Positions 56,577 to 61,225 of a DNA stretch of 64,000 nt are shown piece after piece. The DNA lies in assembly GCA_965660855.1 (NCBI GenBank), contig CBFIBM010000001.1, forward strand, positions 352,798 through 416,797, given 5' to 3'. Each line of letters starts with the position of its first letter. Position 1 is the stretch's first letter. Source of the DNA: an uncultured bacterium (GTDB lineage Bacteria > Fidelibacterota > Marinisomatia > Marinisomatales > UBA1611). The translations under genes were made by a program, and so were the position numbers. The notes under the pieces were generated by a model that did no database searches, had not been told where the DNA came from, and worked only from the letters and a program-made list of their open reading frames with translations.

Positions 56577-58697
56577 TTGAAATTAAAATTAAAAAATAAT
56601 ATATTGCTAATAAGCATATTATCCTGTTCAAATTTTGAGAAAGAATATGTAAAAATGAATTATCCAGAAACAAAAAAAGATGAGGTATTAGAAGTAATTT
56701 TTGGAAAAAAAATTCCTGACCCTTATAGATGGTTGGAGGATGAAACTTCATATGAAACCAAAAAGTGGGTGGTTCAACAAAATAATTATACTGATAATTA
56801 TCTAAGCAGAATTCCTTTCTTAAAAAAAATTGAGGATAGATTAAAAAATATATGGAACTATCCCAGTGAATCTATTCCAATAGCGAAAGATGATAACTTA
56901 TATTATTTTTATAATGATGGCTTGAAAAATCAATCCATTTTAAGATTAAAATCCAAAGACACTTCCAAAGATATGACTATAATTGATCCAAACCTACTTT
57001 CAAGTGATGGAAGTAAGTCTATCGGTGGGCTTTATTTTTCAAATGATCATAAATATCTTGGCTATACTATCAATAAATCTGGATCCGATTGGCAGGTAAT
57101 AAATGTAATGCGATTAGAAGATCAATCATTAGTTAAAGATACTCTTAAACGTGTTAAGTTTAGTGGAATTGAGTGGTTTAAAAGGGGTTTTTTCTATAAA
57201 AGATATCCAGAAGCAGAAACAAATAAGATCTTATCTAAAAAAATATCTAATTCTAAGATATATTATCATAATTTAGGTGATAAACAGGAAAATGATATTC
57301 TTGTCAAAACTCCATTTACATCTGAATATATCTCACCATATGTATCAGTATCCGAAGATGAGAAAGTTATATTTTTATATGGTTATAGGGGGACATACGG
57401 GAATTCCCTTTATTATAAAAAATCTAATTCTAATGAGAATAATTGGATTTCTTTAGTTAAGGATTATAATTCTGATATTCAAATTGTAAGAAAAATAAAA
57501 GACCATATATATGTATTAACGGATAGAAATTCACAATACAAGAAATTAGTCAAAATTTATTTGGATAAACCAGGTGAAGAAGATTGGGTTACATTAATTG
57601 AAGGTAAAGAAAATGAAGTATTAAAAGAAATAAAAATTACAGGAAATAAAATTTTTGCTCATTTCTATAAAGATGTATTGTCCTGCTGGAAAATTTTCAA
57701 CTTAAGAGGAAAGATATTAGAAGAACTAGAATTACCCGGAAAAGGAATTGTTAACGGATTTGATGGGGATTTATCTTCAAAGATAACTTATTATAGTTTT
57801 AATAATCTAATTACACCATACACTATATATAAATATGATATTATCAATAATAAATCTGAAATTTATAAAACTTCAAAGATAAAATTTGATAGTAAAAAGT
57901 ATATTTTAAAACAAGAATTTTATACTTCAAAGGATGGCACTAAGGTTCCTATTTTTATTTGTCATAGGAAAGGACTGCTAATGGATGGTAAAAGACCCAC
58001 ATTGTTATACGGGTATGGTGGATTTAATATTTCTATCGAGCCATACTTTAATAAATCAAATGCAGTTCTCTTGGAAAATGATGGCGTTTACGCAATAGCA
58101 AATATTAGGGGAGGGGGTGAATATGGACAAAAATGGCACTCAGATGGAATGTTAGAAAAAAAGCAAAATGTTTTCGATGATTTCATCTTTGCTGCAAAAT
58201 ATTTGATAAAAAAAGGTATTACCTCTGAAAATTTTTTGGGAATTCAGGGTCAGTCTAATGGTGGGTTACTAATAGGTGCAGTATTAAATCAAAGACCAGA
58301 ACTTTTTAAGGTTGCATTTCCTGAAGTAGGTGTTATGGATATGATTCGATATGAGAAATTTACTATTGGACACGCTTGGAATGTTGAATACGGGTCAGTA
58401 AAAGATAAGAATCATTTTGAATATATCTATAAATACTCTCCTTTACATAATATCGATTCTGGAATTAATTACCCTTCCATGTTAATTTATACTGCTGATC
58501 ATGACGATAGGGTTGTCCCAGCACATTCATTTAAATATGCAGCATCAATACAATCTTTAAAGGGTCAAAAAAATCCTGCGCTGATAAGAATTGGAGTGAA
58601 TGTTGGTCACGGTTTTGGAAAACCTGTAAAGAAAATAATTAAAGAAAATGCCGAAAAATGGGCTTACTTTTTCTATGAAATGGGTGTATCATATTGA
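56577..58697 (+). CDS. Prolyl oligopeptidase (S9A)
   Basis: DPYRWLED, YGYGGF, GQSNGGLL, DHDDRV, GHG. Confidence 0.95.
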   Translation: MKLKLKNNILLISILSCSNFEKEYVKMNYPETKKDEVLEVIFGKKIPDPYRWLEDETSYETKKWVVQQNNYTDNYLSRIPFLKKIEDRLKNIWNYPSESIPIAKDDNLYYFYNDGLKNQSILRLKSKDTSKDMTIIDPNLLSSDGSKSIGGLYFSNDHKYLGYTINKSGSDWQVINVMRLEDQSLVKDTLKRVKFSGIEWFKRGFFYKRYPEAETNKILSKKISNSKIYYHNLGDKQENDILVKTPFTSEYISPYVSVSEDEKVIFLYGYRGTYGNSLYYKKSNSNENNWISLVKDYNSDIQIVRKIKDHIYVLTDRNSQYKKLVKIYLDKPGEEDWVTLIEGKENEVLKEIKITGNKIFAHFYKDVLSCWKIFNLRGKILEELELPGKGIVNGFDGDLSSKITYYSFNNLITPYTIYKYDIINNKSEIYKTSKIKFDSKKYILKQEFYTSKDGTKVPIFICHRKGLLMDGKRPTLLYGYGGFNISIEPYFNKSNAVLLENDGVYAIANIRGGGEYGQKWHSDGMLEKKQNVFDDFIFAAKYLIKKGITSENFLGIQGQSNGGLLIGAVLNQRPELFKVAFPEVGVMDMIRYEKFTIGHAWNVEYGSVKDKNHFEYIYKYSPLHNIDSGINYPSMLIYTADHDDRVVPAHSFKYAASIQSLKGQKNPALIRIGVNVGHGFGKPVKKIIKENAEKWAYFFYEMGVSY

Positions 58698-58699
58698 AC

Positions 58700-59077
58700 T
58701 TAATCAAGTACTGTGTTTAAATCATCTCTTATTAATATTAAAATAGAAGATTGAGAAATAATCAAATAGTTTTTTTCTTCTAATTTTATGTCTATACTTG
58801 CCTTTCCTAAAAATAGAGCATAATCACCAATTTCAGCTTGGGTAGGTATATAATTTGTTTTAGATTTTTTATCTTTCCATGGTTCATCAATAATGTCTTC
58901 TGTACTACCTAAAGGAATACCTGGTCCAACTTTAACAACAACCCCACTTCGAACTTCTTGTTTTTCCAATACACTTGGCGGTAAATACAAACCTGCTGTA
59001 GATTTACTCTCTCCTGTATCGGGTTTAATCAATATCCTATCACCAACAATGATAATTTTTTTATTAAAACTTTTCAT
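58700..59077 (-). CDS. Stand-alone GroES-family co-chaperonin
   Basis: VGDRILIKP..TAGLYLP..GVVVKVGPG; no groEL adjacent. Confidence 0.85.
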   Translation of the reverse strand: MKSFNKKIIIVGDRILIKPDTGESKSTAGLYLPPSVLEKQEVRSGVVVKVGPGIPLGSTEDIIDEPWKDKKSKTNYIPTQAEIGDYALFLGKASIDIKLEEKNYLIISQSSILILIRDDLNTVLD

Positions 59078-59096
59078 TCCAGGAAGTAAAATAATT

Positions 59097-59174
59097 GGTG
59101 AGTCTCAAAAGAGACCCACCAAAACTGTTATGCTGGTTGGAAGGAGGGTCTAGGAGGGTAACCAGCAAAACAGT
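59097..59174 (-). ncRNA. Candidate structured small RNA with tandem anti-SD loop plus terminator-like hairpin
   Basis: 14-bp stem enclosing ACCCUCCUAGACCCUCCUUCC, then GGUGGGUCUC-UUUU-GAGACUCACC. Confidence 0.55.
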
Positions 59175-59181
59175 AAACCTC

Positions 59182-59730
59182 TTATTCAACCTCTAATTTT
59201 TCCTCTTTTTTAGGTAAAGTTCCCCAATATGTTGGAGTTGTATTTAACATGAAAAATATATTGGAATCTGTTCTATATACATCACTTGATTTGTTTTTTC
59301 TAATATAATTATGCTGAAAATCTTGACCTTTATTCCCAAAAATGACATGAAGCAATTCATTATTTTCTTGATCATATAAAATAAAATGCTTTCCAGTAGA
59401 ATCATCGACTCCAAATTTATCCCATTTTTCTTCTTTAGATGTAATGAGCATCTCTCTTTTAGTTTTTAATATTTTATTGAAAATATTATCGATCTTATTA
59501 TCGTTAATTGCTAGTGAATCATTGCCTGTGATGGTCCAAAGAGTATCCTCTTTAGCAAGTTCTAAAATGTTATTATTTTCAGTTATTTTGATTCTACTTA
59601 TATCTTTTTCATTCCCATCAAAAATCTCAACTGTACTAGCATTATAAGAATCTTGAGATTTCTGATTATATAAAAATAAAAGTAAAATTACTGCAAAGGA
59701 TGCAAGTCCGTATTTAAGTGAATTAGTCAT
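59182..59730 (-). CDS. DUF4340-like protein
   Basis: N-terminal TM; follows gldG-like gene; FGVD..VIFGN..YIRK..DVY. Confidence 0.7.
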   Translation of the reverse strand: MTNSLKYGLASFAVILLLFLYNQKSQDSYNASTVEIFDGNEKDISRIKITENNNILELAKEDTLWTITGNDSLAINDNKIDNIFNKILKTKREMLITSKEEKWDKFGVDDSTGKHFILYDQENNELLHVIFGNKGQDFQHNYIRKNKSSDVYRTDSNIFFMLNTTPTYWGTLPKKEEKLEVE

Positions 59731-61225
59731 ATATTTGTTTTAACATTTCTGCTTTAAATTTTTCTTTTCTAAATCTCCAAAAACCAAAGCTAATTATTAG
59801 AATAGATGGAAGTAGCATATTTATGTATTTCCAATTTTTTTTACTTGAATCATTAATCTCATCTAATGGGCGATTGGTAATTTCTCTAGATCGAAGCGAG
59901 ATTAAATCTTTATCACCTGCAAGGTAATCAACAGAGTTCATTAAAAAAACGAGGTTTCCTTCAACTGACATTCCGCCCTCGTCACTCAAGAATTTAGAAT
60001 CCGAAATAAGGATTATTTCCCCACCTGAATTTAATTTTGATAATGCTGAAACTATTTTACCATTTTGTCCTAATAAATTTAAGAATGGATTTTGTTGAGG
60101 ATCAGGACTTAGAATAAAATTCCCCTCCATAATTCCACTATTATTAGAACTTGTAAAAAGTTCTGTTACACTTGATACATTTTCACTTAAAACTGTATCA
60201 ATCTGTATTTCACTTGGAAAGAAGGGAAGTACCTGTTCTAAATCTGAAACTACTACTTCAGAAAGATTAAAAGAGTCAATCATAGGAAAAAATGGATATT
60301 CCATCGCCCTATTCATCATAAATATTCCTCTTCTTTCTTGAACTTGAACGCTTCCACATTTTTTATCTAAAACCAAATTTTTCTTTAACTCAAGATTATA
60401 GTTTTTTAACAATTGAAAAATATTAGATTCTATGGGTATTGCTTGTTGAGTTTGAATATCTGTTTTTATACCACTCTGAGCGATAAATACCTTTTTACCA
60501 GATTCCAAAAACTTATAAATAGAATTTATGGTATTTTCTTCCACTGAATCTGAGGTTGCACTTAATAATAAAACATCTATATTATCAGGGATTTCATCCC
60601 CCAGGTTTATTTTTCTGAAATTATAGTGCTCATTTAATTGTGAAGAAAGTGTTTGTGTTTTTAACTCATCATCTTTGTCAAGATTTAAAAGCGCTATAGT
60701 TTTTTTATCTGCATTTATAAGGGATTTAATTTTGGTACTTATTGAGTACTCTAAACCCGTTGTGGATTGTATGACTGGCAATATCTCTTTTTTATCTTCA
60801 TACAGTAATACCAAACCTAGGTATACCTTTTTTACAACCATTTCATCATTTTCAATTGCTTGCATTTGGACGGGTTGAATACCATCTTTTCTTGCTTGTT
60901 CTTCTAAATCTTCATCTGACTGAGGATCATGAAAGAAAAAATTTATATCATCGGATTCTGCTCGATATTCCTCAAGAATATCTTGCAAAAAACGACGCGT
61001 ATTTCCTAATTCATTTGGAAGGTTTTCGGAAAAATATACCTTTAATATTAGGCGATCATCTAGTTTAGAAACTATGGATTTACTAGATTTTGAGAGGGAG
61101 TACATTTTATTATCTGTTAAATCAAGTCTAGTAAAAATATCTCTGGAGGTAAGATTTAATAGTATTAACCCAACTGTTAATACAGAAGTGAAAATAATAA
61201 ATGATTTTTTAGTATTGATATTCAT
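59723..61225 (-). CDS. gldG: GldG-like ABC transporter auxiliary subunit
   Basis: RLDLTDNKMYSLS, VYFSENLP, GLEYSIS, LMNSVDYL..LISLRSR. Confidence 0.85.
   Translation of the reverse strand: MNINTKKSFIIFTSVLTVGLILLNLTSRDIFTRLDLTDNKMYSLSKSSKSIVSKLDDRLILKVYFSENLPNELGNTRRFLQDILEEYRAESDDINFFFHDPQSDEDLEEQARKDGIQPVQMQAIENDEMVVKKVYLGLVLLYEDKKEILPVIQSTTGLEYSISTKIKSLINADKKTIALLNLDKDDELKTQTLSSQLNEHYNFRKINLGDEIPDNIDVLLLSATSDSVEENTINSIYKFLESGKKVFIAQSGIKTDIQTQQAIPIESNIFQLLKNYNLELKKNLVLDKKCGSVQVQERRGIFMMNRAMEYPFFPMIDSFNLSEVVVSDLEQVLPFFPSEIQIDTVLSENVSSVTELFTSSNNSGIMEGNFILSPDPQQNPFLNLLGQNGKIVSALSKLNSGGEIILISDSKFLSDEGGMSVEGNLVFLMNSVDYLAGDKDLISLRSREITNRPLDEINDSSKKNWKYINMLLPSILIISFGFWRFRKEKFKAEMLKQIYD

Follow-up and report, generated by a model that had tools for sequence, protein, structure and literature searches.

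The alpha-r14 / NfeR1 RNAs, of the cuckoo type in Alphaproteobacteria, are described as carrying ultraconserved anti-Shine-Dalgarno motifs in unpaired hairpin loops on stems that diverge (PMC10746234). These motifs are predicted to pair with ribosome-binding sites, many of which belong to ABC-transporter mRNAs, and the RNAs are reported to have three hairpins, each with CCUCCUCCC, and promoters of their own (PMC10746234). In the Firmicutes, the Rsa RNAs, including RsaE/RoxS, are reported to target G-rich Shine-Dalgarno (SD) sequences with C-rich loop motifs and without Hfq; this is described in PMC2790875 and PMC4409812. RsaE/RoxS are independent genes with a UCCC motif. In Bacteroidia/Flavobacteriales, rpsU is reported to be autoregulated with bS21 (PMC7797042, PMC9976891), and an extended rpsU SD is described for the Flavobacteriales (PMC9976891, PMC13000453). 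As the abstracts give it, the Bacteroidia system works through the 16S rRNA tail itself and ribosomal proteins, and a free RNA copy of the tail has no part in that account.

The element described here consists of two hairpins encoded on the minus strand of a 64,000-nt stretch of DNA (the window). Its source belongs to the Marinimicrobia (SAR406), a clade that is abundant in the dark ocean and uncultured, and to the same superphylum as the Bacteroidia; the assembly is 2.09 Mb in size, 84% complete and 31% G+C. The literature searched describes no regulatory RNA for Marinimicrobia (SAR406).

Unlike alpha-r14, the element carries two CCCUCC motifs together in the 21-nt loop of one hairpin, placed at the stop codon of the last gene of an operon, and its second hairpin has a UUUU or UUAAUU loop with no CCUCCUCCC-type motif. 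It also comes from a different phylum than the cuckoo-type RNAs of the Alphaproteobacteria. Membership of the cuckoo family, which a preliminary description of this DNA named as an example of such RNAs, does not hold, since no Rfam model matches and the architecture differs. With RsaE/RoxS the element shares a C-rich loop, and no Hfq was found in this genome either; it differs in being embedded in an operon and in having a CCUCC core with a 16S-like UUUC extension, and it has no sequence or model similarity to these RNAs. Small RNAs of the CpxQ and SroC type derive from 3' UTRs and share the terminator of the mRNA, and they are known from mapped transcripts and Hfq binding. Like them, the element would start just after a stop codon and end at the intrinsic terminator of an operon; unlike them, it is known from contigs with read-through, and its terminator is missing in one genus. 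The features shared with the anti-SD sequestration of Bacteroidia are a sparse use of SDs and an invariant extended rpsU SD.

Gene neighbourhood and structure of the element

The element lies downstream of a DUF4340-family gene, the last gene of a gldA/gldF/gldG-like ABC-transporter operon, and upstream of a gene for a Cpn10/GroES-like protein (Table 1). The TAA stop codon of the DUF4340 gene (59184-59182) is 7 nt 5' of hairpin 1, and the terminator U-tract ends 10 nt 5' of the start codon of the Cpn10-like gene in this genome. No SD was seen before that start codon, here or in the loci of relatives. The next gene encodes a prolyl oligopeptidase (Pfam) and is on the opposite strand.

Table 1. 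Features of the element and its surroundings, in positions of the window
Feature	Position	Strand	Basis and remarks
GldA-like ABC ATPase	62881-61934	minus	Pfam + NCBIfam; UUG start after AAGGAG
GldF-like permease	61986-61228	minus	Pfam + NCBIfam scans
GldG-like protein	61237-59723	minus	Pfam + NCBIfam scans
DUF4340-family gene, 182 aa	59730-59182	minus	ORF list; Pfam DUF4340 7.4e-9
Intergenic gap, 104 nt	59181-59078		minus-strand gene pair
Hairpin 1	59174-59124	minus	MFE fold: 14 pairs, one U-U mismatch
Hairpin 1 arms	5' 59174-59160, 3' 59138-59124	minus	fold
Hairpin 1 loop, 21 nt, ACCCUCCUAGACCCUCCUUCC	59159-59139	minus	sequence; two anti-Shine-Dalgarno-like motifs
Hairpin 2, terminator-like, loop UUUU	59122-59095	minus	fold + terminator scan: 12 bp, one G-U, 6 G-C
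Tail UUAUUUU after hairpin 2	59094-59088	minus	U-tract
Divergent Cpn10/GroES-like paralog, 125 aa	59077-58700	minus	Pfam Cpn10 1.7e-12

The downstream gene had been taken to be groES, and a groES leader had been offered as one identity of the element. The encoded protein scores 44.7 bits, which is under all of the NCBIfam GroES cut-offs (96-142), and the canonical groES is found elsewhere in the genome (C1:214531-214806; 121.7 bits). Directly 3' of the latter is a 546-codon frame, taken to be a putative groEL from its position and N-terminus; AAGGAG precedes both genes. The neighbour of the element is a divergent paralog that does not lie in the groES operon, and the label of groES leader is therefore wrong. 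A canonical groES leader, as marked by the CIRCE operator consensus, was rejected because the neighbour is a paralog followed by the prolyl oligopeptidase gene on the other strand. Relatives of the paralog (43-55% identity) form a widespread GroES-like family, with members in Bacteroidales, Gemmatimonadota, Latescibacterota, Planctomycetota and other phyla. In the loci seen, none of them has groEL next to it.

By sequence and by folding, the gap, the 14-bp stem with its single mismatch and the 21-nt loop are as the preliminary description gave them. The second hairpin had been given 10 bp with one irregular pair, a G-U; the irregular pair is as stated and the length is not, since two U-A pairs extend the stem to 12. 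The loop of hairpin 1 contains 11 C and 1 G and is unpaired in both the MFE and the centroid fold. The MFE of the minus strand is -38.7 kcal/mol, compared with -21.1 +/- 3.2 for 200 shuffles (z = -5.46), none of which is as stable. Hairpin 2 has the make-up of an intrinsic terminator, with a stem-loop rich in G+C and, on the strand that is transcribed, a U-tract behind it. A consensus scan of 58600-59800, with an expectation of 0.5 sites, finds no other terminator-like site. Taken alone, the tandem motif is not rare by chance, as 17 of 100 shuffles of the window contain a match (<=3 mismatches), so the evidential weight is on structure and conservation rather than on the motif count.

Both hairpins covary among relatives. 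In 14 species-level sequences 94.4% of the cells in the stem of hairpin 1 are paired, compared with 21-47% when the partners are slid, and the covariation score is 0.319 as against 0.226 in shuffles (0/500 shuffles reach the observed value). Compensatory changes are found at 4 pairs of hairpin 1 in these sequences and at 8 of the 11 pairs of hairpin 2 in the 14 aligned homologues that have it. The stems also carry the imprint of one strand. U-G pairs are frequent in the sense stems and turn into A-C mismatches on the plus strand, the terminator and its U-tract are on the minus strand, and the sense fold is more stable than the antisense fold in 12 of 17 homologues. Together these features fix the minus strand, as the preliminary description had proposed, and a selected RNA structure on this strand is highly probable. 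A plus-strand RNA, with a GGA loop for CsrA or with SDs that would serve a small ORF, is extremely improbable: the loop would read GGAAGGAGGGUCUAGGAGGGU on that strand, and the plus strand folds too (-34.7 kcal/mol, z = -4.0), but its stems would contain the A-C mismatches and it has no U-tract after hairpin 2. A search of the genome, which is 84% complete, gave no CsrA, and there is no start codon at SD distance in this genome. The CsrA-type loop that had been suggested for the plus strand was given up with this reading.

Several other explanations of the fold were rejected. A DNA operator palindrome is unlikely, as the arms pair via G-U wobbles and the conserved part is the spacer. The homologues differ by 1-, 3- and 4-nt indels and by compensatory stem changes, and the ends of the upstream frame vary, which speaks against a coding sequence. 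A pseudoknot between the loop and the terminator could form 8 of 9 pairs in this genome only, as relatives offer about 4 nt by eye. An RNA thermometer (ROSE / fourU) was dismissed because no SD precedes the Cpn10-like start and the anti-SD motifs are unpaired in the loop.

Hairpin 2 is itself conserved in part. Its loop, UUUU in this genome, is UUAAUU in 9 of 14 aligned homologues and a one-base variant of this in 2 more (columns 74-79 of alignment A5), and the stem beneath it covaries (CUCG/CGAG, CCUG/CAGG, CCCG/CGGG). A role beyond that of a generic terminator is possible for hairpin 2. In one genus, the three sequences keep hairpin 1 but have a weak hairpin 2 or none, and a defined 3' end is thus not universal.

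Distribution and conservation

A covariance model built from 13 sequences was applied to 54 genomes of one Marinimicrobia family. The element is present in 15 of them, in 9 of 15 genera and as a single copy each; 14 matches are strong (58.9-86.4 bits) and one is weak, with a degenerate loop. A repeat or mobile element was rejected, as there is one copy in this genome and one per relative. The other 39 of the 54 genomes, many of them incomplete, have no match, so the element is dispensable. A DNA search for the hairpin 1 core recovers it in 8 out of 36 further members of the family, and in none of the 24 genomes that represent 15 other families in the order. Within a 151-genome sample of the order, the covariance model finds no copy in the 123 genomes of other families; a match of 24.5 bits outside the family (genome G089) is a false positive, lying within a 462-aa frame on the other strand and having no CCCUCC pair. 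A scan of metagenomes with the loop pattern gave at least 116 matching stretches, 80 of which were fetched. Nine of these loci contain the element, all with the same synteny; the remaining 71 do not, 4 of them being weak model matches over the loop alone.

The synteny is constant. In the genomes and the metagenome loci, every copy is between the stop codon of the DUF4340 gene and the start codon of the Cpn10 paralog. Some members of the family still have the two genes adjacent, with the hairpin lost or degenerate.

Rfam 15 gives no family at gathering score in the window. At the locus itself, with E <= 10, there are only chance rows of the snoRNA, coronavirus-UTR and rliI types, and in the loci of 12 relatives, with E <= 0.5, only one sub-threshold Thr_leader row.

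Sequence identity between genera was computed from 13 sequences (78 pairs). It amounts to 80% in the loop, 75% in the stem, 42% in the flanks of the hairpin and 32% at the fourfold sites of the adjacent gene, the last a value at saturation. The loop is thus under purifying selection. Among 14 sequences, 13 retain the second CCCUCC; the first motif, ACCCUCCU, is retained in 10 and varies in the other 4. The preliminary description had made its case depend on a conserved loop and on compensatory changes in the stem. Both are present: in addition to the loop identity, 12 of the 24 pairs of the two hairpins are compensated in the alignment of relatives, which together indicate a real, selected RNA structure. 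The element is an RNA family without an Rfam match, with a well-supported structure and a putative regulatory function. Covariation, the selected loop and its presence in metatranscriptomes make it a candidate for RNA family libraries.

The position of the DUF4340 stop codon varies. Of 19 sequences, 14 have it 0-8 nt 5' of the stem and the other 5 have it within the hairpin. In these five (loci L104, L164, L107, L111 and L108) the DUF4340 frame crosses the 5' arm of hairpin 1 and stops at the edge of the loop (UAA or UGA) or at the UAG of the loop. With the stop codon at or in the loop, the RNA structure overlaps coding sequence in these relatives, and because the frame enters the hairpin, ribosomes that terminate on the full-length transcript must open it. 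A stimulator of stop-codon read-through or frameshifting was rejected, as the distance from stop codon to stem is not fixed and the stop codon is inside the hairpin in the five sequences just named.

Transcripts and Shine-Dalgarno sequences

The element is present in metatranscriptome assemblies of four studies, and 13 RNA-library runs contain parts of the stretch. Contigs of four of these runs were placed on the stretch. Three of the contigs bridge the hairpins into both genes, namely record 1 of run X1 (1414 nt, covering the whole stretch), record 10 of run X6 (58866-59258) and record 4 of run X2 (59019-59800). Read-through of the terminator occurs, unless the contigs reflect DNA carry-over in the libraries. 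Runs X2, X4 and X6 also leave parts of the stretch without contig cover. No conserved promoter was seen upstream of the element, where the flanks are 42% identical, so the RNA is most simply the tail of the operon transcript. Transcripts were viewed as assembled contigs, which cannot reveal RNA ends; a processed or terminated short RNA, of about 80-90 nt if it is a discrete trans-acting sRNA, may be produced from the element.

A 136-nt contig of run X4 (record 6; 59135-59169 of the window) is a copy from another genus with a depth of 39.5. Compared with locus L131, it reaches from the stop codon of DUF4340 to a point about 40 nt inside the paralog gene; in the same run, the depth for the flanking genes of the organism studied here is 4-12. 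This contig hints weakly at a short RNA of high abundance; alternatively, the assembly broke at the conserved core.

The CUCCUU of the loop is complementary to AAGGAG, the usual form of the SD in this organism, and the CCCUCC motif is complementary to AAGGAG / GGAGG SDs of this genome. The loop thus presents a C-rich motif that is conserved, left unpaired and able to pair with the SD consensus. The likeness to small RNAs with C-rich or anti-SD loops that the preliminary description had noticed is upheld by this conserved and unpaired CCCUCC; the mode of action would be the same by analogy. Eight of 14 sequences have CCUCCUUUC as the 3' motif of the loop, which makes nine bases identical to the 16S tail found in three other Marinimicrobia; in this genome the motif reads CCUCCUUCC. 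These three genomes, which are outside the searched family set, have a 16S 3' end of ...GGAUCACCUCCUUUC; the 16S rRNA gene was not found in this genome or in five genomes of the family.

An SD-like 4-mer precedes 18% of 1416 crude gene starts, compared with 7% in a control window, and the value of 18% is a lower bound since many starts are GUG or UUG. Individual SDs are conserved among 30 genomes of the family. That of the gldA-like gene (AAGGAG / UGGAG) is kept in 29 and that of skp, which has a GUG start after AAGGAG, in 28. In all 30, rpsU starts with GUG behind an extended SD, GGAGGUGAU, that is invariant. This pattern recalls the signature linked to anti-SD sequestration and bS21 autoregulation in the accounts from Flavobacteriales, and would extend it by analogy to the Marinimicrobia. 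There seems to be an association between conserved SDs and weak start codons (GldA-like ATPase, skp). The start codon of the GldA-like ATPase is UUG here and AUG in some relatives.

No specific target emerged for the loop. A genome-wide duplex scan gave generic G-rich matches only, with no outlier target. The first SD of the operon itself was considered as a target that co-occurs with the element and was rejected: all 13 genomes that carry the element have this SD, and so do 16 of the 17 that lack it, and being equally kept in both groups the SD gives no support for pairing as a linked trait. As for skp, UAGGAGGG in this genome matches 8 nt of the loop, but GGAGGG is found in 1 of 30 genomes (this one), and the SD of skp is otherwise generic and conserved regardless of the element. 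With rpsU the pairing is limited to a 5-nt core. The crude non-coding DNA of this genome contains no second hairpin with a CCUCC loop.

Proposed function and alternatives

The reading that we favour, tentatively, is that of an anti-SD regulatory RNA with a C-rich loop, made from the tail of the gldAFG-like operon. It would be a structured, single-copy RNA of the minus strand, specific to one Marinimicrobia (SAR406) family, and would be transcribed as the tail of the gldA/F/G-like-DUF4340 operon with no conserved promoter of its own. The RNA would begin at, or a few bases from, the DUF4340 stop codon and would end, in most lineages, at the intrinsic terminator just 5' of the Cpn10 paralog. The large loop of hairpin 1 would expose one or two CCCUCC motifs, with the 3' copy extended to CCUCCUUUC, and would pair with G-rich AAGGAG-type SD regions of mRNAs to block 30S binding. 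It may act in trans as a 3'UTR-derived RNA or on the first cistron of its own operon. The terminator directly after hairpin 1 counts in favour of a regulatory RNA, and the pairing of loop and SD is modelled on the RNAs with C-rich loops described above. Searches of the 84%-complete genome for Hfq, CsrA and RRM-type proteins found none, which fits the chaperone-independent pairing of C-rich loops as the published accounts describe it. Against this reading count the contigs that bridge the hairpins, the genus without a convincing terminator, the failure of any target to stand out, the variation of the first motif, the 39 family genomes with no match and the DUF4340 frames that enter the hairpin. 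If the loop does act in this way, the C-rich-loop strategy would have arisen independently in a third lineage, one that is poor in SDs.

There is a low but appreciable probability that the element acts in cis, as an intercistronic leader or attenuator in which hairpin 1 is a sensor bound via its conserved loop by a protein or another factor. It would then set either the passage through the hairpin 2 terminator or the translation of the SD-less Cpn10 paralog. The U-tract ends 0-25 nt before the start codon of the paralog across homologues, which leaves no room for a promoter, so expression of the paralog must come from read-through such as that seen in the RNA contigs. A role in cis, which suits the geometry and the read-through well, would also be consistent with the occurrence of the element at the DUF4340/Cpn10-paralog junction only, and with the terminator-less genus, whose three sequences still keep hairpin 1 at 37-40 nt from the AUG. 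However, inspection of the sequences by eye found no conserved antiterminator pairing, the loop matching the terminator arm well only in this genome (4 nt elsewhere), and the spacing between hairpin 1 and the AUG varies from about 37 to 65 nt across homologues. The gene pair, moreover, remains adjacent in relatives without the element, and no candidate binding protein is known. A purely structural element at the 3' end, either a stabilising hairpin with a terminator or a C-rich, rut-like loading site for Rho, is unlikely, as is the absence of any sequence-specific partner that it entails. The position at the end of an operon, the canonical terminator and a loop that is C-rich and G-poor within a 31% G+C genome would all suit such an element; a loop identity of 80% across genera, against 32% at neutral sites, is unexpected for the loops of stabilisers or for rut sites, and so is the retention of a specific hexamer, CCCUCC, in 13 of 14 sequences.

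The nine-base identity of the 3' motif to the 16S tail in 8 of 14 sequences raises the possibility, which is distinctly unlikely, of a mimic or decoy of the 16S 3' tail. A factor whose usual ligand is the anti-SD tail would be bound by the loop instead, and this would tune how many ribosomes can read SD-led mRNAs. A maturation factor such as Era is one candidate binder. Another is the bS21/bS18/bS6 pocket described in Bacteroidia (PMC7797042, PMC9976891). The invariant extended rpsU SD (30/30) and the sparse SD use (18% compared with 7%, from crude starts) form a signature like that of Bacteroidia and would be in keeping with a decoy. However, the bases 5' of CCUCC differ from those of the 16S tail (GAC compared with UCA) and the UUUC extension is lost in three sequences of one genus. 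Sequestration of the tail by these ribosomes has no support either, and the conserved SDs (those of the gldA-like gene, skp, groES and the frame beside groES) suggest normal SD reading. A broader scheme, in which the element is a copy of the 16S anti-SD tail that governs a small SD regulon in a mostly SD-independent lineage, is rather unlikely. The SD genes chosen would be rpsU, bS18, the gldA-like gene, skp and groES; the RNA would titrate their SDs, or compete for the proteins that hold the tail of the ribosome, and would thus switch translation between SD-blind and SD-reading. If this were true, the bS21 circuit of the Bacteroidia would extend to the Marinimicrobia, with an added RNA player. 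Together with the invariant rpsU leader, the anti-SD RNA favoured here would make control of translation initiation in the phylum testable in heterologous systems.

Some minor observations concern the 16S tail and the genes of ribosomal proteins. The rpsU SD GGAGGUGAU is a 9-nt complement of the 16S tail (L298, G000:C10:46625-46867, minus; relatives L299-L327). Conservation extends to the leader of rpsU (ACCACAAAC...), in which ACCAC could pair with GUGGU of the start region. Strong SDs, GAGGAGGA and UAGGAGGU, are found on the bS18 and bL9 genes (L267, G000:C4:70156-70836, minus). In three genomes (L097-L099), the spacer right after the 16S tail CCUCCUUUC(U/A) reads AAGGAG, the complement of the tail, and presumably pairs with it in the precursor.
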